From assembly GCA_963708185.1 (NCBI GenBank), contig OY970195.1, positions 352,001-416,000 on the forward strand: DNA of 64,000 nucleotides, written 5' to 3'. Made by a program: the position numbers and the translations under genes. Below are positions 961 to 29,063 of the stretch, piece after piece. This DNA is from Candidatus Peregrinibacteria bacterium (GTDB taxonomy: Bacteria; Patescibacteriota; Gracilibacteria; UBA1369). Every line of letters begins with the position of its first letter. The stretch's first letter is position 1. The notes under the pieces are model-generated. The model had not been told where the DNA came from and did not search any database. It saw only the letters and a list, made by a program, of their open reading frames with translations.

Positions 961-3900
961 TTACGCTTTGTTCTTGTTGGAACTCTCCGGCGGCGGAACG
1001 AGCGTTGGTTTTATCGATGACATGGATGGAACGGCCGTGCTGCGGGGATATCCCGGAGCTATGGTGTAGCGGTGACTCCGATCGTCATGGGGCGGAACAC
1101 TGCGGTGAATCTGGGTTTTGAGTTCTTCCATGATCGTTTTTGTTTCACCGGTGTTGACCAGATAGTAATCGCCTTTGTGAACGAAAATGATGTTCTGTTC
1201 ACCGAGGTCCCAATCCACTTCGTCGATGATTTCGGCAAGGTAGGCTTTGAAGTCGCACAAGACTTCATCGTCGGGAAGGATATTGTCCAGTCCGCGGGTG
1301 ATTCTTGAGTCGCGGATGTTGACTTTGAAAAGATAACTTCCCTTGGAAAGTTCCAGCGTACTCGTTTCGCCCTTCTGTGTCGTGGTGAGAATTCTGTAAC
1401 AGCCGGAAGGGGTGTTTTTGTGATTAAGCACGTTTCCCTGGACGTCGCCGTGGTCCTGGTCGAGGACCTGGCGGAGTTCTTTTTTCTGCAGGTCGCCGAG
1501 GGGAATATAGACGAATTCGGTGAATCTTTTGTCCTGGACTCTTAAAACACGGTGGCTGCCGTGACGGCGACGTTTTTCGTACGTTGTTCTTGCGACGTAA
1601 ATAGGCACAACTTCTTCAACGTCACCCTGCCCGATTTCCGCTTTGAAGGATACTCCTTTTTCGCCGTTCACCGGTACGGTGCCGAGCGTGTATTTTACTT
1701 TTCCTTCGGAGATCTGTGCATGGCTTATTGAAAATTCCTGGCCTTCAAACTGCGCGAGTTTTTCCGCGTCGAGTTTGTCTCCTTTTGAAGGAAGCGCCGC
1801 CGCGCCGTTGCGGAGTTCAACGCTGTAGGAGAGGTTTGAACCGTCGAGGTTTTTCAAGGCAGCGGCGTACTGTTCGTTCATGGCCACCGTAATGTGTTCG
1901 GCCGCAAGCCCGAGCTTGTTTTTCAAAAATTCGCTGAAGGTTTCGAACTGTCTGCTTGAACCTTTCTTGGTGGAGATGCGGTATGGGACCGCTGTGTCAG
2001 ACGCAATGGTCGTTTTGACCAGTTCGTGGGTGCGTCTCGGAATCAGGATCTGTTTGCGTCTCGCTTTTCCCTGGGTTCGCGCCGAGGTGTTCATCGTCGT
2101 TCCGACCAGGGTGTAATCGTTCGATGAAAGCAGGTCAAGTTTCACGTATCCCGAGTCGCCGGAATAGACGGCGGTCGTCGTGTCGATGACCGGTGAAAGT
2201 CCGAACTCTTCACGAAGACGGGTAAGATACCACTCTTCGGGGTTTTCCTGATATTCCATCCATTCATCGGTCTGTTCGCTGTCTTCAATGCTCGGCGGGA
2301 CGAATTTTTTTTCAGCAATTTTAATCAGTTCCACGCGGAATTTTTCGGAAAGTCCGTTGAGTTCTTTCTGGATGAGCAGTGCCGCTTTCAATGCGTTCAT
2401 CGCAAAAAATTCGGGGTGGCGTTCGTCGGATTTGTATCCGAGCGGATCGCGCCCTGTTGTGTCGATGGGTACGCCGAAGTGCATGATGGCCATGTCTCCG
2501 ACCGCTTTGTCCCAGGTCCCGCAATACGTCGTGCCGATGCGCTGACAGAGTACCAGAAAGTCCTGGACGATGTTTTTGATGACGCTGAGAGCTTCTATGC
2601 TGGCTTTATCGTTTTTGAAAAGTTTGCGTTCAATGAGGTTGCAAATTCTGGTGTAGCCGGATATATCTGTGATGATGGTACTGGTTTCGGAACGAACGAT
2701 TTCTTCGATGCCGTTGCCCATTTCCGCAGCAGCGATTTTGGGGTCCCTTCCTTCCACCATCAGGCGCAGATTGTTGCGCCATTGGGAAGCGTGGCTTGCG
2801 AGGATCATGGAAGCCATCCGCAGGAACGTTTTGTCTTCATCGGTGAGCTCTTCGCTTTCATCGGTGCGGAAAATGATTTTTCCGATGATTTTTTTCTGTC
2901 CCTGTTCATTTCTTGAGGGATCGATGATGTCCTTGATCAGGGTGTGTTTTCCTCCCGAACGGTTGAGCGTTTTTGCCGACTGTTCGGCAAATCCACGGAG
3001 TTCTGGTGTATCTGCAAGGTTTTCGGGATCATGGTCGTCGCTGTATCTTTTGGCGATGAAATGGTCGCATTCTCCTTCGTCTTCATCCGAGACCACGAGG
3101 AGGAGGTCGGCTTCGGTGGCTTTGCTGTACAGGCAGATCTCTTTCATGAGTTCCGCGAGTCCTTTCTCAAAATTCGAAGAAGCGCCGTGGCGATCGAGAA
3201 TGCCGTGGGCGAGTTTGTCGAGTCGCGTGATACGCCGCGCTTTGAGCGCTTCGTCTATTTTGCTGTCGAGACGCGTTCTGGCTTGGTCGACGAATGCCTG
3301 GAGTTTTTGGTCGAGCGTTTGTCCCGGCGCCATTGTTATCTCCAGGACTCCGAGTTTGCGGTCGGCGATTTTCAGTTCGACGAAAACGGTATTTGAGGTC
3401 GGGTCAAAGAACAGGAATTTTTTTTCGTCTTCGTCAAAAAGAGCCCGTTCGTTCTTTTTCGTGAACTCTTCCTGGTTCGAGGATTCACGCTTTCCGCTCA
3501 GGTTGATTTTGGTGAGATGAGCGGTCTCCTCATAATGGTTTTCTTCGTTGACAAGGTAAAAAGCAATGTCAAAAAATTTTTCTCCGGCTATTTTTTTCAG
3601 GTACCCCATAATTTCCCTGATCCCTTCTTCAAGCGCCTCACCTCCGGAAATATAATCAATGAGTTCATTGAGTTCACGGTCGATTTTGAGCGTTTCGGCA
3701 TCGAGGGCCAGTGTCTGGTTCTGCTCGACGGCCTTTGCGGCGTCTTGATTGGCTTTTTTTGCTTCAACCAAAAGGCGAAGCTGTTCAGCAATGGTTTTTT
3801 TGGTCACGGCGAGTGCGTGGAGTGCTTTCGGTTCGATGACTCCGATTTCCGAAGAAACATGAAGGTTCGTTTTCATCAGGAGTTCGAAAGGATCGATCGA

Positions 3901-4212
3901 AATATCTTCGGGCTTTACTCCCGATTTCAGCTCAGCCTGGATGTCCGCATACGTTTTCGGAGGGATAACCTGCAGGGCTGCCATTTTGTTTGCGTGGATC
4001 ATGCGTACGATCGTTTTCATGACGGCGCGGAGTTCTTCAGGACGTAAAGAGTTTTTTGCGTCTTTTAAGGTTTCCCAGTCTTTTCGTACGCCCTCGTCGA
4101 GTCTTGCTTCGTCCACTTCAGACTTTCGTTCTTTCAGCGTGGTTTTCGCTGCAAGAATATCAAGTTCAATGTGATCTTCTCGTGAAAATGGGAATTTTGG
4201 CATATTGGTCAC
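961..4212 (-). CDS. Large soluble class III adenylate/guanylate cyclase with GAF-like N-terminal regions (start may be ATG 4203)
   Basis: Cyclase motifs TDISGYT, WDKAVGDMAIMHFG and DYTLVGTTMNTSARTQ; no transmembrane segment or signal peptide seen. Confidence 0.75.
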   Translation of the reverse strand: MTNMPKFPFSREDHIELDILAAKTTLKERKSEVDEARLDEGVRKDWETLKDAKNSLRPEELRAVMKTIVRMIHANKMAALQVIPPKTYADIQAELKSGVKPEDISIDPFELLMKTNLHVSSEIGVIEPKALHALAVTKKTIAEQLRLLVEAKKANQDAAKAVEQNQTLALDAETLKIDRELNELIDYISGGEALEEGIREIMGYLKKIAGEKFFDIAFYLVNEENHYEETAHLTKINLSGKRESSNQEEFTKKNERALFDEDEKKFLFFDPTSNTVFVELKIADRKLGVLEITMAPGQTLDQKLQAFVDQARTRLDSKIDEALKARRITRLDKLAHGILDRHGASSNFEKGLAELMKEICLYSKATEADLLLVVSDEDEGECDHFIAKRYSDDHDPENLADTPELRGFAEQSAKTLNRSGGKHTLIKDIIDPSRNEQGQKKIIGKIIFRTDESEELTDEDKTFLRMASMILASHASQWRNNLRLMVEGRDPKIAAAEMGNGIEEIVRSETSTIITDISGYTRICNLIERKLFKNDKASIEALSVIKNIVQDFLVLCQRIGTTYCGTWDKAVGDMAIMHFGVPIDTTGRDPLGYKSDERHPEFFAMNALKAALLIQKELNGLSEKFRVELIKIAEKKFVPPSIEDSEQTDEWMEYQENPEEWYLTRLREEFGLSPVIDTTTAVYSGDSGYVKLDLLSSNDYTLVGTTMNTSARTQGKARRKQILIPRRTHELVKTTIASDTAVPYRISTKKGSSRQFETFSEFLKNKLGLAAEHITVAMNEQYAAALKNLDGSNLSYSVELRNGAAALPSKGDKLDAEKLAQFEGQEFSISHAQISEGKVKYTLGTVPVNGEKGVSFKAEIGQGDVEEVVPIYVARTTYEKRRRHGSHRVLRVQDKRFTEFVYIPLGDLQKKELRQVLDQDHGDVQGNVLNHKNTPSGCYRILTTTQKGETSTLELSKGSYLFKVNIRDSRITRGLDNILPDDEVLCDFKAYLAEIIDEVDWDLGEQNIIFVHKGDYYLVNTGETKTIMEELKTQIHRSVPPHDDRSHRYTIAPGYPRSTAVPSMSSIKPTLVPPPESSNKNKA

Positions 4213-4311: not shown

Positions 4312-4339
4312 TTGACTTTTGGGAAGTTCTTTTTATAAT
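4312..4339 (+). promoter_or_regulatory. sigma70 promoter of rpsU
   Basis: TTGACT-16 nt-TATAAT. Confidence 0.7.
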
Positions 4340-4371
4340 GATGAAGCTTTTTATTTATTTTAAGCCTTTGG

Positions 4372-4381
4372 AAGGAGGTGA
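4372..4381 (+). promoter_or_regulatory. Extended Shine-Dalgarno sequence of rpsU
   Basis: AAGGAGGTGA, exactly complementary to the 16S 3' end TCACCTCCTT in this window; 6 nt before ATG 4388. Confidence 0.9.
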
Positions 4382-4387
4382 GACTGT

Positions 4388-4594
4388 ATGGCAATAACCC
4401 TTTGGAAAAATCCGAAAGAGTCCGTTGATCGTTTGATTTCACGTTTCAACAAAAAGGTTCAGGCAAGCCGAGTTATTTTGCTGACAAAGGAACGCCGTTA
4501 CCGAAAAAAGAAACCGAGTAAGCGTCATGAACGTACAGCGGCCATGATGCGCACGAATTACCGTCATCAAAGAGAGAGACAGAAGTTCTATTAG
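4388..4594 (+). CDS. rpsU: 30S ribosomal protein bS21
   Basis: 68 aa, basic; pattern ESVDRLISRFNKKV...ERRYRKKKPSKR is typical of bS21. Confidence 0.88.
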   Translation: MAITLWKNPKESVDRLISRFNKKVQASRVILLTKERRYRKKKPSKRHERTAAMMRTNYRHQRERQKFY

Positions 4595-4602
4595 GATTTT
4601 GC

Positions 4603-4627
4603 AGCCCCGCCTCAGGCGGGGCTTTTT
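4603..4627 (+). terminator. Intrinsic terminator after rpsU
   Basis: AGCCCCGCC-TCA-GGCGGGGCT followed by a T-run. Confidence 0.8.
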
Positions 4628-5485
4628 ATGAATTTTATGAAAGTACGAGAACTCTTCAAACATATCCGTTCGAAATTGGGCCAACAGGGTGATTTCCTTG
4701 GGGCTGAGCTTCTGCTTGCCTATGTTTTGGATAAGGACCGCGCTTATCTTCAGGCTCACGATGATGAAGAGATTCCACAAGAGAGCATGAGGCGTTACGA
4801 TGAACTTTTTGGGAGAATGGCGGCCGGGGAACCCGTGGCATATCTTTTGGGACACAGGGAGTTTTACGGTCTTAATTTTTTCGTGGACCGCAGAGTATTG
4901 ATACCACGACCCGAAACCGAACATCTGGTTGAAAAGGTGTTGGACTATTGCCGGAAAAATACGGATGTCCTCAAGATTCTCGACCTTGGGACCGGCAGCG
5001 GGTGCATTGCTCTTTCGTTGGCAAAACTTTTGCCTTCAACCCACGTAACGGCAACGGATATTTCCGAGGATGCCCTCAACGTGGCTCGAATCAATGCGCA
5101 GCGGTTGGACCTCAAAAACAGGGTATCGTTGTTGCAGAGTGATTTGCTGGAATCCGTTTCCGGCCCTTTTGACGTCATTGTTGCGAATCTCCCCTACATT
5201 GGCGAGAAACGTTTTTCTTTCGTCAGTAAATCAGCGTACGATTATGAACCTCATGTTGCGCTTTTTGGCGGGAACGAGGGTTTGAGTTTGTACCGCAGGT
5301 TTTTTGAAGAGCTTTCGAGAATCTCCTGGAGGCCGCGTCTGCTCGTTGGAGAGTTCGGTTTTTTGCAAAAAGAAGAGCTTTTAGCCATTTTTCAATCGAT
5401 ATTCCCTGAAATTTCCATGCATTTTGAGCAAGATTATGCTCACATTGACCGGATGTTTGTGGTAGAATTTCCGTCGATTCCTTAA
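4628..5485 (+). CDS. prmC: Release factor glutamine methyltransferase
   Basis: [25 protein letters not shown] and NLPY motifs; adjacent to prfA. Confidence 0.95.
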
Positions 5486-20253: not shown

Positions 20254-21755
<1,502 letters not shown>

Positions 21756-22055
21756 CTAGGAGATATCAGGGAACTTAGGGATTTTTATTTCTAAGCATTT
21801 TCCAGGTCGACCCTCGCTTCGGCGAGGTTTCTAGATCTCTCTCTACTACATTTTGGATGTTAAAGGTACAACCTTTCTTCTTTTCTCTCCTTTATAGGGG
21901 TATGAAATCTTCCAATAGTTTCAACAGGTCGAGTCAAAACATTGAGGTTTCGGTCCGAGCGCACAGCGCGAGGGCGTAAGCTGTGGCTTTGCTACACGCT
22001 GAAGCGTATCGATAGAAGAAAAACCTTATTTTTCAATTTTAACCCTCTCACACAC

Positions 22056-22325
22056 ATGGAAACTCAACAACTCACCTGCCAGGATTGTGGCAACACTTTT
22101 GATTTCACTGCAGAAGAACAACAGTTTTTTGCAGAAAAAGGATTTCAGGAACCAAAGCGCTGCCCTAATTGCCGAAAAGCAAAAAAGGAAGCTCATCGTC
22201 CTACCTTTACGAAGGTAACCTGTTCTGGCTGTGGGATGGAAACCGAGGTCCCGTTCGTACCAAAAGGCGACCGTCCGGTTTACTGCCGTGCTTGTTTTGA
22301 AAAGAACAAAGCAATGTCTGCGTAA
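22056..22325 (+). CDS. Zinc-ribbon / CxxC-x17-CxxC domain protein
   Basis: CQDC..FTAEEQQFF..PKRCPNCR and CSGC..VPFVP..RPVYCRAC. Confidence 0.88.
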   Translation: METQQLTCQDCGNTFDFTAEEQQFFAEKGFQEPKRCPNCRKAKKEAHRPTFTKVTCSGCGMETEVPFVPKGDRPVYCRACFEKNKAMSA

Positions 22326-22345
22326 TTACTGTTTAGGTAATTTGG

Positions 22346-22377
22346 AAGAGGATGTCTGGAAAGACATCCTCTTTTTT
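22346..22377 (+). terminator. Intrinsic terminator
   Basis: AAGAGGATGTC-TGGAAA-GACATCCTCTT plus T-run. Confidence 0.85.
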
Positions 22378-22389
22378 GTAGAAATTCGT

Positions 22390-22417
22390 TTGCAAATTCC
22401 GCGGCTTTCTTTATAAT
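22390..22417 (+). promoter_or_regulatory. Promoter for tRNA-Ala/tRNA-Ile
   Basis: TTGCAA-16 nt-TATAAT. Confidence 0.6.
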
Positions 22418-22522
22418 GATCGAGCTGTTTTGACAGTCAGGCTTTGCAAGTCGTCAATGGCTTGCAGGAGCGCAAAGATGTGGGCCCTTAGCACAAGCTA
22501 AGGTCCCACCGTTTACACTCGT

Positions 22523-22599
22523 GGGCCCTTAGCTCAGTTGGCCAGAGCGCCTCGTTTGCACCGAGGAGGTCAAGGGTTCGACTCCCTTAGGGTCCACCA
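22523..22599 (+). tRNA. tRNA-Ala(TGC)
   Basis: GGGCCCT...AGGGTCC-A-CCA with G3:U70; loop TTTGCAC. Confidence 0.96.
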
Positions 22600-22608
22600 G
22601 AATATTGC

Positions 22609-22685
22609 GGGCGAGTAGCTCAGTTGGTTAGAGCGCGTCACTGATAATGACGAGGTCGGAGGTTCAAATCCTCCCCCGCCCACCA
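22609..22685 (+). tRNA. tRNA-Ile(GAT)
   Basis: GGGCGAG...CCCGCCC-A-CCA; loop CTGATAA. Confidence 0.95.
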
Positions 22686-22754
22686 TGATAGAGTTCCCGG
22701 GACTCTTTTTTGTTTAATGCCTGATCCGGTTTCTGTTACAATGGCTACGATTTA

Positions 22755-23357
22755 ATGTTTTTTATGTCAGGAGAGCTGCTTGCCGCCATCGTTTTTGATC
22801 TTATCCTCTATGGAACTCTGGCTTGTGCGGCCATCCCTCTGCTGTTTTTTTTGTTGTGGACATTTTTCAACTTTTGGAAAAAATACTATCTTCTTTTTTA
22901 TTTTACGGGCATCGTTCTTTTGGCCGCGATTCCTACTGCTTTTTATTTTACGCAGCATTACTGGATTTATCTCTACTATCCTTTCCCCGCATGGGTGCAA
23001 ATCATCGGGCTGATACTTATTATTTTCAGTTATCTTGTCGTGAAACTGGCCCAGGCCTCCATCAGTGTTCCCGTTCGTTTCTTTTTTCCGGTTCTTAAAA
23101 ATCACCCCATTCAATTAAAGACGAAAGGCGTGTATCGATACGTCAGACACCCCATTTATGCGGTGTTTCCTTTGATTGTTATTGGTGGACTTTTGTATAC
23201 CGGCGAGCTGGTGCTTTTCCCGGTTTTCTTCCTGGTCCTTGTGACGAGGAAATGGTATGCCGTCAGGGAAGAGGCGTACCTCAAGCAAAACCTTCACGGT
23301 GACTATGAAAAATATATGAAACAGACTCCCAACCGTTTTTATCCTAAAATTTTTTAA
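22755..23357 (+). CDS. Isoprenylcysteine carboxyl methyltransferase / PEMT family membrane protein
   Basis: Multi-TM; LKTKGVYRYVRHPIY, EEAYL and YEKYMKQTPNRF. Confidence 0.85.
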   Translation: MFFMSGELLAAIVFDLILYGTLACAAIPLLFFLLWTFFNFWKKYYLLFYFTGIVLLAAIPTAFYFTQHYWIYLYYPFPAWVQIIGLILIIFSYLVVKLAQASISVPVRFFFPVLKNHPIQLKTKGVYRYVRHPIYAVFPLIVIGGLLYTGELVLFPVFFLVLVTRKWYAVREEAYLKQNLHGDYEKYMKQTPNRFYPKIF

Positions 23358-23359
23358 GT

Positions 23360-24190
23360 ATGATTTTTTATGCTCTCCATGTTCCGGGTGTTGAAGACGA
23401 AAGACTTGAACTGCTTCGTGCCGCCTGCAAACGTTTGAAGATTTCTTTCAGGGCGTTGTCGCCGTCCGGATTCGATTTTTCCAGGCCTTCCCCCGTGAGA
23501 AAAGGCGACATTGTCTATAGAATCAGCCGAGGTAAACTGCTTCGGTTTTTTGAGGATTACATCGTCAGGCCCGGTTGTATCACGTTTTATCAAGACGTCA
23601 TTTTCCATAAACCGGATCCATTTTTTCTTGAGAAGCATGACATTCCTGTTCCAAAAACCGTTTTTTGTCTCACCAGAGAGAAGAAGCTTTTGATGAACTA
23701 CGTGAAGGAGATCGGGGGATTCCCGGTCATTCTCAAAGCCTTGGGTGGAACGCACGGAATGGGGGTCATCAAAATTGACTCTTTTTCAGCGCTCAAAAGT
23801 ATGGCGGATTTTTTGTTAGCCCAGGGGAAATTGTTTGTGCTTAAACAGTTTTTACCCGTAAAGACTTCCGCACGTTTTATCGTTCTCGGGGATAAAGTCG
23901 TTGCCTCGATTGAATACGTCGCTCGGGACAATGACTTCCGGACGAATTCAGCCAAAACGCTCACTGTCCGTCCAAAAAAATATTCAAAAGCCCTTGAAGA
24001 ACTGGCGGTCAGAGCCACACACGCCATGGGTTGGGAGTTCGGTGGGGTTGATATTCTCATTCATAAAGGTAAACCTTACGTTTCCGAAGTGAATTTTCCC
24101 TGCAATTTTGTACGGGCTCAAAATGCCCTCAATAAGGACGTCGCTCTCCTTATGGTTCAATATCTTCAGGCAAAAGCGAAAAAACTTTAA
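23360..24190 (+). CDS. Divergent RimK-like ATP-grasp protein
   Basis: IPVPKT, GGFPVILK..GGTHGMGV, DFRTN, GVDI and EVN motifs. Confidence 0.8.
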   Translation: MIFYALHVPGVEDERLELLRAACKRLKISFRALSPSGFDFSRPSPVRKGDIVYRISRGKLLRFFEDYIVRPGCITFYQDVIFHKPDPFFLEKHDIPVPKTVFCLTREKKLLMNYVKEIGGFPVILKALGGTHGMGVIKIDSFSALKSMADFLLAQGKLFVLKQFLPVKTSARFIVLGDKVVASIEYVARDNDFRTNSAKTLTVRPKKYSKALEELAVRATHAMGWEFGGVDILIHKGKPYVSEVNFPCNFVRAQNALNKDVALLMVQYLQAKAKKL

Positions 24191-25287
24191 AGCAGGTCTC
24201 GGGTTATTTTGTCGATGATAAGGAATCCTTCATCGGTCGGACTCAGGAATCGTCCGTCCAAAACAAGTTCTTTGCTTTCTAGATAGGGTTGCGCCTTTTT
24301 GAGCAATTCGGATGTTTTTTTGAATCTCTTTTTGAATTCGGACGTGTCGATACCGCGTTTTGTTCGCAAACGAAGCATGATGTAATCGAGTTCACGCAGT
24401 TCAGCGTCCATGGGAACCTCTTCGTTCATATCGTCGGGGGTCGACAAATACCGGTCGAAGTCCCTCGTGTTTTCGGTACATTTGTCATTGATATAGGAGT
24501 GTGCGCCGATGCCGAGCCCAACGTACTCTTTTTGGCTCCAGTATCTTAAATTATGTTGGCATTCATAGCCGGGTTTTGCGTAGTTCGAAACTTCATAATG
24601 GTTGTATCCTGCTTTTCTTAAACGCGTGACAAGGTGTTCGTACATGGCGACCTGTACGTCGTCGTTGGGGCAGTCCGCTTTGAAAAGATCGATCTTTTTC
24701 GTGTCATAGGACAAGAAATAAAAAGAAAGGTGGGGGATATTGAGATCGAGGATTGTTGAGAGCTGGGTCTTGAAGTGTTGGAGCGTCTGGTGGGGGAGTC
24801 CGAGGATGAAGTCCGCACCGTAATTTTTCATGGGGGAACTGCGGATGGCATCAAGGGCTTTGAAGATGGTTTTGTCATCATGCGGACGGGCGATGCGGAA
24901 AAGAATTTTTTTGTCGAAATTCTGGATGCCGAGGGAGACGCGGGTTACTCCAGCTTGGTGATAGATCCTAAGTTTTTTTTCGTCGATGCTTTCCGGGTTG
25001 CATTCAATGGAGATTTCCGGTTTTTTTTGTATGTTAAAGCTGTGCCTGATGCATTGAAGGATATCCTCGATATAATGAGCTTCGATCAAACTCGGCGTTC
25101 CGCCACCGAAGTACAAGGTTTCGACCTGGTAATCCCGGAGTTCTTTAGACTTCAGCCCTATCTCTTTTTTGAGCGCTTCGACGTAATCAGGTATGAATTT
25201 GTTTTTATGGGCGAACGTCAGGAAATTACAATAGAGACAGATTGTTTTGCAAAAGGGGATATGGATGTAGAGAGAAAGGTCTTTCAT
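24187..25287 (-). CDS. hemW: Radical SAM HemW/HemN-like protein
   Basis: LYIHIPFCKTICLYC (CxxxCxxC), YFGGGTPS, HYEVSNY, HNLRYW. Confidence 0.88.
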   Translation of the reverse strand: MKDLSLYIHIPFCKTICLYCNFLTFAHKNKFIPDYVEALKKEIGLKSKELRDYQVETLYFGGGTPSLIEAHYIEDILQCIRHSFNIQKKPEISIECNPESIDEKKLRIYHQAGVTRVSLGIQNFDKKILFRIARPHDDKTIFKALDAIRSSPMKNYGADFILGLPHQTLQHFKTQLSTILDLNIPHLSFYFLSYDTKKIDLFKADCPNDDVQVAMYEHLVTRLRKAGYNHYEVSNYAKPGYECQHNLRYWSQKEYVGLGIGAHSYINDKCTENTRDFDRYLSTPDDMNEEVPMDAELRELDYIMLRLRTKRGIDTSEFKKRFKKTSELLKKAQPYLESKELVLDGRFLSPTDEGFLIIDKITRDLL

Positions 25288-25354
25288 GGTTGGTTCGATT
25301 GGATTGAAGCCGTTTTTATGCTATAATGATAGAAAGTTAACACACCTTCATAAT

Positions 25355-25606
25355 ATGGATCGTATTTTTGCAGCAGTCATCGGGATTCCCCTGGGGTTCC
25401 TCATGATGATCTACAGGTATCACCTTAAACAGTTTACAGGTCCTATTCAATGGGCAGAACAATATTTGGGGTCCGGAGGAACCTATAATCTTTTCATCAT
25501 TGTCGGTTTGTTGATTTCGATCGTTTCACTCATGTACGCTTTGGGTACGATTCAGGATCTTTTTACCAGCGGATTGGGTCCTATTTTCGGTGTCGGACAG
25601 AGCTAA
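25355..25606 (+). CDS. Small two-TM membrane protein
   Basis: 83 aa MDRIFAAVIG..WAEQYLGSGGTY; TATAAT at 25322 upstream. Confidence 0.7.
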   Translation: MDRIFAAVIGIPLGFLMMIYRYHLKQFTGPIQWAEQYLGSGGTYNLFIIVGLLISIVSLMYALGTIQDLFTSGLGPIFGVGQS

Positions 25607-25637
25607 AACCCTTCAGGAGAATTTCGTTAAAAATTTC

Positions 25638-25666
25638 TTGACTTCAGGTGACTGCTTACTTATAAT
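25638..25666 (+). promoter_or_regulatory. Dedicated 23S-5S promoter
   Basis: TTGACT-17 nt-TATAAT; boxA TGTTCTTTAACA at about 25806-25817. Confidence 0.8.
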
Positions 25667-25942
25667 GCAGTGGCCTCAATTTGAGATTGAGATTTACTGA
25701 ATGGTTTTTACCTCACAAATTTCGCCCATATCCCTAAGCTTAAAGTGCTGATTTCACTTGGTCAGGACTTTGAGTTGAGGGGTGTGTGCGAACACATCCC
25801 TTTTTTGTTCTTTAACAATTGGGCCTCAAAAGAATGATTGATAAATCAATCTGTAATTTCATTTGAGAGTTATTCAATAAACAATAGTATCATACTCAAT
25901 ATTAGCTGCGAGTATTCACTCACAGCTAGTTAAATGGATGAT

Positions 25943-29063
<3,121 letters not shown>

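Follow-up and report, generated by a model that had tools for sequence, protein, structure and literature searches.

In the genome of a Peregrinibacteria bacterium, a member of the Patescibacteria/CPR whose genes are otherwise poor in Shine–Dalgarno (SD) sequences, we have found that the SD of rpsU, the gene of ribosomal protein bS21, surpasses every other by a wide margin in length, strength and breadth of conservation. The pattern suggests, with a probability that we put at roughly 0.55, that bS21 controls its own synthesis by feedback, through a long helix between the SD and the anti-SD that would form best on subunits free of bS21. The window referred to throughout is the whole 64,000-nt stretch of DNA that was analysed, and positions are those of the window unless they are given as genome coordinates.

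Results

The rpsU transcription unit

The coding sequence of rpsU occupies positions 4388–4594 of the plus strand, stop codon included, and its product of 68 aa was assigned to bS21 from the family profile and from homologues. Upstream lies a predicted sigma-70-type promoter (4312–4339, plus strand; TTGACT, a 16-nt spacer and TATAAT) that matches the consensus at 11 of 12 positions, in a region where 4 promoter-like sites are seen and 0.9 are expected from shuffled sequences. From its position the leader of rpsU is predicted to be ~40 nt long. This leader contains the extended SD GGAAGGAGGTGA (4370–4381, plus strand), which is complementary to the 3′ tail of the 16S rRNA over 12 bp and is separated from the ATG at 4388 by a spacer of 6 nt. 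The core 10-mer, AAGGAGGTGA at 4372–4381, is a perfect complement of the tail, and the two G residues that precede it bring the total to 12 consecutive pairs, one of them G–U; both the 10-nt match and its 12-nt extension are therefore as originally described. The length of the helix formed with the tail lies between 10 and 12 bp, depending on the mature 3′ end of the 16S rRNA.

Downstream of the gene, a terminator-like hairpin of the intrinsic type, with 9 pairs (8 of them G–C) followed by a run of T, is predicted from the sequence at 4603–4627 (plus strand) and directly abuts the start of prmC at 4628. With a predicted promoter of its own and a terminator-like hairpin before prmC, rpsU would thus form a self-contained, monocistronic unit.

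The predicted leader is longer than is usual for this genome. Among 330 genes that come first in their operon, the usual start of a –10-like hexamer is 41–28 nt upstream of the ATG, which implies short leaders genome-wide, and in 28 of the 330 it is at –15 to –11, which implies leaderless mRNAs. The TATAAT of prfB (G000:C1:1130824–1130840) ends 7 nt upstream of its ATG. Divergent from rpsU is an open reading frame of 1083 aa (961–4212, minus strand) with a strong coding signal and no Pfam match at E 0.001.

The 16S rRNA tail

The sequence with which the rpsU SD pairs is encoded in the same window. Rfam places the 16S gene at 20254–21755, and its 3′ end reads GGATCACCTCCTTTCTAG; the tail, GATCACCTCCTTTC (21744–21757, plus strand), contains the canonical anti-SD CCUCC. 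Table 4 of PMC10783764 lists a Peregrinibacteria genome as SD-scarce (7% SD) and as lacking CCUCC, a listing that the intact tail found here corrects. Further along the operon, in the stretch 21756–25946, ~3.2 kb separate the two spacer tRNAs (22523–22682) from the 23S gene, and the 23S match itself (25947–29062) measures 3116 nt against a model of 2925 positions. The oversized match and the wide spacing suggest that the rRNA operon holds inserted sequence.

Identity of the rpsU product

Taken alone, the rpsU product scores below the family cut-offs, with 17.5 bits against Pfam PF01165 (cut-off 27) and 17.8 bits against TIGR00030 (cut-off 28.95), although its match spans positions 7–52 of the 55 in the family profile. 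It is the sole S21 candidate in the genome. A profile built from 29 relatives matches 28 distinct sequences in the PDB, all of them bS21 (best E 8.2e-7). The precomputed PF01165 annotation is present in 28 of 42 database homologues, several of which are named 30S ribosomal protein S21, and homologues at 57–69% identity both carry PF01165 and are named S21. One closer relative (69% identity) is labelled ‘hypothetical protein’, and the protein cluster to which the bS21 of the window belongs has two members, neither with a name. On the strength of the profile matches and of the annotated homologues we identify the reading frame at 4388–4594 as a divergent bS21, as had been proposed. According to PMC9297842, bS21 is frequently lacking in Peregrinibacteria and Gracilibacteria. 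Since we find a homologue in 38 of 41 genomes at the level of the order and in 55 of 61 at the level of the class, the reported absence is most likely a detection artefact.

Strength of the rpsU SD in its own genome

The genome consists of one contig of 1,437,033 bp with 49.8% G+C. A crude hexamer gene finder called 1303 genes covering 90% of it; rpsU was missed and was added by hand. The pairing energy of each gene was calculated with RNA.duplexfold between the 22 nt upstream of the start and the 14-nt 16S tail. By this measure rpsU ranks first of the 1303 genes at –19.8 kcal/mol, and the runner-up reaches –15.1 kcal/mol. Out of 100,000 random 22-nt windows of the genome, none attains –19.8 kcal/mol and 394 attain –13 kcal/mol. 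A chance origin of the rpsU SD can be ruled out, as no random window is as strong and the element is conserved (see below). Pairing of –13 kcal/mol or stronger is seen at 5 of the 1303 starts, as often as at random.

Across the genome, translation starts have less SD-like sequence than the background. Pairing of –4.5 kcal/mol or stronger is found at 237 of 1303 starts (18.2%) against 539 of 1238 internal in-frame start codons (43.5%), and the corresponding figures are 32.6% for windows at –62 to –40 and 36% for 100,000 random windows. In 695 confident genes the G content at –18 to –4 is 5–13%, compared with 26% genome-wide, and with A at –3 amounting to 0.33 there is no clear A–3/A–6 signal. 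None of the 31 genes of the ribosomal-protein operon (S10-spc-alpha region) reaches –6 kcal/mol, and the gene of bS18 pairs at –0.9 kcal/mol. Within the 64-kb window, where 57 genes were called, a credible SD is present on rpsU only, so that the housekeeping genes named in the original prediction do lack one.

The further statement that rpsU is the only housekeeping gene with an SD holds for the window and is slightly too strong for the genome, in which two genes outside the window have conserved SDs of 9–10 nt. A pilin-like gene (genome position 195660; G000:C1:195630–196499; N-terminus ...GFTLIELLV...) has GGAAAGGAGG upstream, with a pairing energy of –14.4 kcal/mol, and this SD is kept in three of the five relatives examined, being present in G002, G004 and G023 and absent in G015 and G005 (L183, L184, L185). 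An E1-beta-like gene (genome position 1015446; G000:C1:1015416–1016432) has AAAGGAGG before its start; among the five genomes searched, the gene and its SD occur only in the two of the same genus (L189, L190), and it may therefore be a later acquisition that retained its SD. The conservation of these SDs suggests that a useful fraction of the ribosomes has access to the anti-SD.

Translation of prfB (G000:C1:1130838–1131904) proceeds in a single frame, without a programmed +1 frameshift site. A frameshift in prfB is thereby ruled out as a reason for keeping the anti-SD, which has no rival use in that gene.

Conservation in the order, the class and other CPR classes

Within the order, the rpsU pairing is –13 kcal/mol or stronger in 30 of the 38 genomes that have a bS21 homologue, the tail of the window being substituted in the 16 of the 38 from which no 16S tail of their own was recovered. 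At least nine consecutive pairs are formed in 28 of the 38, several genomes having 13 pairs, and the spacers are of 4–10 nt. In seven genomes rpsU has no SD, and one is intermediate. The operon genes of the same order were compared in 20 genomes, with 13–23 genes each, their starts being transferred by homology and matches being excluded when they began past query residue 8 or lay more than 8 codons from any start codon. Not one of these 417 genes reaches –9 kcal/mol and 8 reach –6 kcal/mol. At class level, 1 of 317 operon genes in 19 genomes is at –9 kcal/mol or stronger, and in the other orders of the class the rpsU helix is at least 9 bp long in 8 of 27 loci, the remaining 19 having no SD. 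By these sequence counts the genome, and the class as a whole, is SD-poor yet retains CCUCC.

The expectation that rpsU would stand out by pairing energy is thus borne out in this genome and in most of its order, and SDs are not common on other ribosomal protein genes, with none at –9 kcal/mol among the 31 of the genome itself or among the 417 of the order. The expectation that relatives would share the rpsU SD is confirmed for the 30 strongly paired genomes of the order and fails for seven others and for the majority of the class-level loci. As the SD is missing from those 7 order-level and 19 class-level genes, the circuit, if it exists, would be dispensable.

As a control of the method, the same pipeline was applied to the L16 loci of 29 genomes that belong to other CPR classes, and there it does detect SDs: all seven genes are at –6 kcal/mol or stronger in each of G137, G106, G110 and G125. 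Five genomes of these classes (G109, G116, G120, G104 and G114) are SD-poor. The pairing before rpsU was calculated for 14 genomes of other CPR classes with their own tails and with starts that were not fixed; it is –13 kcal/mol or stronger in 12 of them, and a helix of at least 9 bp is formed in 8. Strong rpsU SDs, between –15.6 and –17.0 kcal/mol, are found in the SD-using genomes G132, G125, G110 and G137. Because extended rpsU SDs are present in SD-using and SD-poor CPR classes alike, the element appears to predate the disappearance of SDs from this class.

Co-variation with the 16S tail and integrity of the anti-SD

The 16S tails of 22 genomes of the order were recovered, and CCTCC is intact in 21 of them. 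Tails of the form GGATCACC (15 of 15 at order level) pair with rpsU SDs that end in GGTG or GGTGA(T), and the tails GGATTACC of G005 and G015 pair with SDs that end in GGTAA or GGTAAT, with a 1-nt gap in G006. The tail of G034, GGAACACC, pairs with GGTGT; G026, which has an identical tail, shows no compensation, nor does G049 at its variant tail position. At class level the tail of G074, CCTCCTATT, pairs with TAGGAGG where the others have AAGGAGG. As judged from these alignments the rpsU SD co-varies with variants of the 16S tail, the independent events being few, since G005, G006 and G015 share features of bS21 and probably represent one clade and one event.

The core of the anti-SD is also linked to the rpsU SD. 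When order and class are pooled, a mutated CCUCC core is found in none of 24 genomes with an rpsU SD and in 4 of 12 without one, namely CCTCT in G038 and G056 and TCTCC in G088 and G046. A one-sided hypergeometric test gives 495/58905, or ~0.008, a value that overstates the evidence because kin are not independent. The bin G062 contains two 16S 3′ ends whose tails differ (GGATCACCTCCTTTT and GGATTACCTCCTATT; L195, L218), and these correspond either to two operons or to a mixed bin.

bS18, bS21 and bS6 compared with Bacteroidia

The proteins that hold the anti-SD in Flavobacterium johnsoniae are bS21, bS18 and bS6 (PMC7797042, PMC9976891), and we compared the residues involved. Four residues of bS18 that contact the tail, K/R37, F50, N56 and Q58, are described as uniquely conserved in Bacteroidetes. 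Residues 4–70 of the bS18 of this genome align with residues 27–93 of 7jil_w, in segments of equal length, and if the alignment is taken as ungapped the four positions are V14, L27, S33 and Y35, none of which matches.

The domain of bS21 that follows KPS contains ~9 Lys/Arg and 2 Glu in 24 residues, a net charge of ~+7 by hand count, so that the ‘less basic’ C-terminal feature of Bacteroidia is not found here. Tyrosine 58 lies 14 residues past the KPS serine, compared with 12 residues between Ser42 and Tyr54 in Flavobacterium bS21 (PMC7797042). The column of Y58 contains 26 Tyr, 2 His and 1 Phe among 29 relatives, and an aromatic residue or His occupies position 58 in 16 of 17 aligned class-level sequences (an alignment that omits 10 of the 27 loci for uncertain starts or recoding) and in none of 5 sequences from SD-using CPR. 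The residue is equally kept in three aligned relatives without an rpsU SD (G038, G012 and G021). The profile search of the PDB did not return F. johnsoniae bS21 (7JIL) even at E 10. From these alignments we regard Y58 as a lead, a possible equivalent of Tyr54. In other CPR classes, several SD-poor genomes encode a bS21 with a common C-terminal extension (...G-KLP...; L164, L165, L166, L168, L169, L171) that is absent from the five aligned SD-using CPR sequences; its carriers may be one clade.

The bS6 of this genome (L182, G000:C1:889545–890170, minus strand) has a K/E-rich C-terminal extension of ~110 aa that ends in ...LDSILSNPDINF and contains no Trp. In F. johnsoniae, Trp100, Arg103 and Lys107 of the C-terminal helix of bS6 touch the last 16S nucleotides. 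Open-frame lengths of bS6 are 107–216 aa in SD users, 143–238 aa in SD-poor genomes and 134–264 aa in the class studied here, and with this overlap the extension does not serve to tell SD-poor lineages apart. Genomes of the CPR commonly have long bS6 open frames, whether they use SDs or are poor in them.

Discussion

Relation to known systems

The best precedent is F. johnsoniae, in which a strong SD is found on rpsU alone and ribosomes free of bS21 translate this gene faster (PMC7797042, PMC9976891, PMC13000453). Initiation on its rpsU involves a 13-bp helix that clashes sterically with the C-terminal helix of bS21 and so excludes the protein, helices in ordinary initiation having seven or fewer base pairs (PMC13000457). 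For a prediction of bS21 autoregulation, PMC9976891 asks that rpsU be the clear winner among the ribosomal-protein genes and that its pairing be below –13 kcal/mol; the rpsU described here has both properties, with –19.8 kcal/mol and 12 bp. As in Flavobacterium and other Bacteroidia, a canonical CCUCC is retained in an SD-poor genome, rpsU is the strongest of the SD-bearing genes, with 9–13 consecutive pairs below –13 kcal/mol, and natural co-variation links its SD to the 16S tail. As is reported for F. johnsoniae, rpsU stands alone with a promoter and a terminator of its own, both of them predicted in the present case.

There are also differences. The system of Bacteroidia belongs to another phylum, and the one described here is known from its sequence alone. 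None of the four bS18 signature residues is shared; the C-terminal domain of bS21 is strongly basic here and weakly basic there, and the extension of bS6 is K/E-rich in place of the helix with Trp, Arg and Lys. There is also no clear A–3/A–6 signal, and prfB, unlike that typical of Bacteroidia, has no SD-dependent frameshift. The Chlorobia provide a second comparison, being SD-less, with predicted bS21 autoregulation and a C-terminal bS21 signature of their own that lacks Tyr54, a situation described as ‘similar but not identical’ (PMC9976891). They resemble the present case as an SD-less lineage whose rpsU has both sequence properties, but 11 other tail-contacting residues are conserved in them (PMC9976891), whereas the bS18 signature residues tested here are not. 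The passages on bS21 autoregulation in the published analyses speak only of Bacteroidota. In the papers that our literature search covered, neither an rpsU SD nor bS21 autoregulation is described for the CPR/Patescibacteria.

In the classical autogenous repression of ribosomal-protein operons, the free protein attaches to its own mRNA at a site that mimics the one on the rRNA. There, as in the circuit that we propose, the synthesis of a ribosomal protein is coupled to its incorporation into ribosomes. The classical sensor is the free protein, and here it would be the ribosome, with or without bS21, reading a leader complementary to its own rRNA.

Feedback on bS21 synthesis and its alternatives

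We propose that the rpsU leader, with its complement to the tail of 10–12 bp (13 bp in some relatives), may act as a homeostat for bS21 in a lineage that otherwise appears to initiate translation without SD pairing. A 30S subunit without bS21, either newly assembled or having lost the protein, would form the long helix and translate rpsU preferentially, while a subunit carrying bS21 would form it poorly. The reason may be that the helix collides with the C-terminal helix of bS21, as the 13-bp helix does in F. johnsoniae, or that the 16S tail is held on the platform. It is from the pattern of pairing that we infer a modulation of initiation by bS21 occupancy and the direction of this effect, and the same goes for any masking of the anti-SD that there may be on mature ribosomes. 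We favour feedback because the helix is exceptional, is tied to rpsU, is conserved, co-varies with the tail and is linked to the integrity of the anti-SD, and because the 13-bp helix provides a precedent.

One alternative is that the SD is a plain signal for strong expression: the anti-SD would be free on all ribosomes, and rpsU would have kept an inherited SD for the efficient translation of a short, abundant mRNA, independently of bS21. Such a signal would fit the poor conservation of the Bacteroidia pocket residues, the conserved SDs on the pilin-like and E1-beta-like genes, the strong rpsU SDs of SD-using CPR classes and the 7 of 38 relatives in the order that manage without an rpsU SD. 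We nevertheless think it rather unlikely, as a helix of 12–13 bp far exceeds the seven or fewer pairs of ordinary initiation (PMC13000457), and as the element is specific to rpsU across orders and classes, almost all of the 417 and 317 other translation-apparatus genes being without one (none and one, respectively, at –9 kcal/mol). Mere efficiency would moreover have no need of pairing that reaches into the GGUGAU part and co-varies there. A hairpin in the leader could offer another kind of control, with free bS21 binding it and an upstream GCCUUU pairing with the GGAGGU of the SD so that the site is masked, in the manner of autogenous repression. The minimum-energy fold does pair these two segments, and CCTTTGG lies upstream of the SD in three of the four relatives of the same genus and in G023. 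Yet the fold is no better than those of shuffled sequences (z = 0.44; 130 of 200 shuffles at least as good), the upstream arm is not conserved in other family members, and the leader matches no known RNA family in Rfam at the gathering cut-off or in E-value mode, the two best E-value-mode matches (E 0.47 and 0.99) both lying over the rpsU terminator. This makes repression through the hairpin highly improbable.

There is then the full mechanism of Bacteroidia, in which a platform pocket of bS21, bS18 and bS6 would hide the tail and so account both for the loss of SDs and for the exception of rpsU. The scarcity of SD-like sequence at starts below background, the retention of CCUCC, the class-wide aromatic residue at position 58, absent from all five aligned bS21 of SD-using CPR, and the C-terminal extension of bS6 would all be in keeping with such a pocket. 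The depletion of G, however, equally fits selection for unstructured start regions, and Y58 is retained where the rpsU SD has been lost. Genes other than rpsU are led by SDs. The bS18 signature is absent at all four positions, the C-terminal domain of bS21 is strongly basic, and the bS6 extension has no Trp and overlaps in length between SD users and SD-poor genomes (107–216 and 143–238 aa). We consider the complete pocket improbable, and the claim that these three proteins occlude the anti-SD as they do in Flavobacterium finds no support in the comparison. What stands of the proposal that the same circuit operates here is its sequence logic: an SD-poor genome that keeps CCUCC, and an exceptional, conserved and co-varying SD on rpsU. 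General occlusion of the anti-SD would be a step separate from feedback; the missing pocket residues, the SD of the pilin-like gene and the SD-using CPR classes all cast doubt on it. In those classes the anti-SD cannot be generally hidden and extended rpsU SDs are nonetheless present, so that occlusion is not needed and feedback through the long helix is to be preferred to it.

Implications

To our knowledge, the ribosomes of the bS21/rpsU circuit of Flavobacterium are the only bacterial ones proven to change their function with their protein composition. We find the sequence logic of that circuit, conserved and co-varying, in another radiation that is both very large and very distant, without the pocket residues of Bacteroidia. 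This suggests that the pattern either arose by convergence or reflects a more general mechanism, the steric exclusion of bS21 by a long helix between the SD and the anti-SD. The leader, the rRNA tail and the set of proteins described here are concrete and open to testing.

A broader possibility, which we advance tentatively and with less than even confidence, is that the incompatibility of such a helix with bound bS21 constitutes an ancestral, CPR-wide homeostat for bS21 that does without the Bacteroidia pocket and is the main selective reason why SD-less CPR keep CCUCC. It would offer a possible explanation for the retention of the anti-SD in these lineages, whose anti-SD core would begin to decay once rpsU no longer has its SD. 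On this view the ‘specialised ribosome’ circuit would belong to bS21 and extended SDs in general and would not be an invention of the Bacteroidota.
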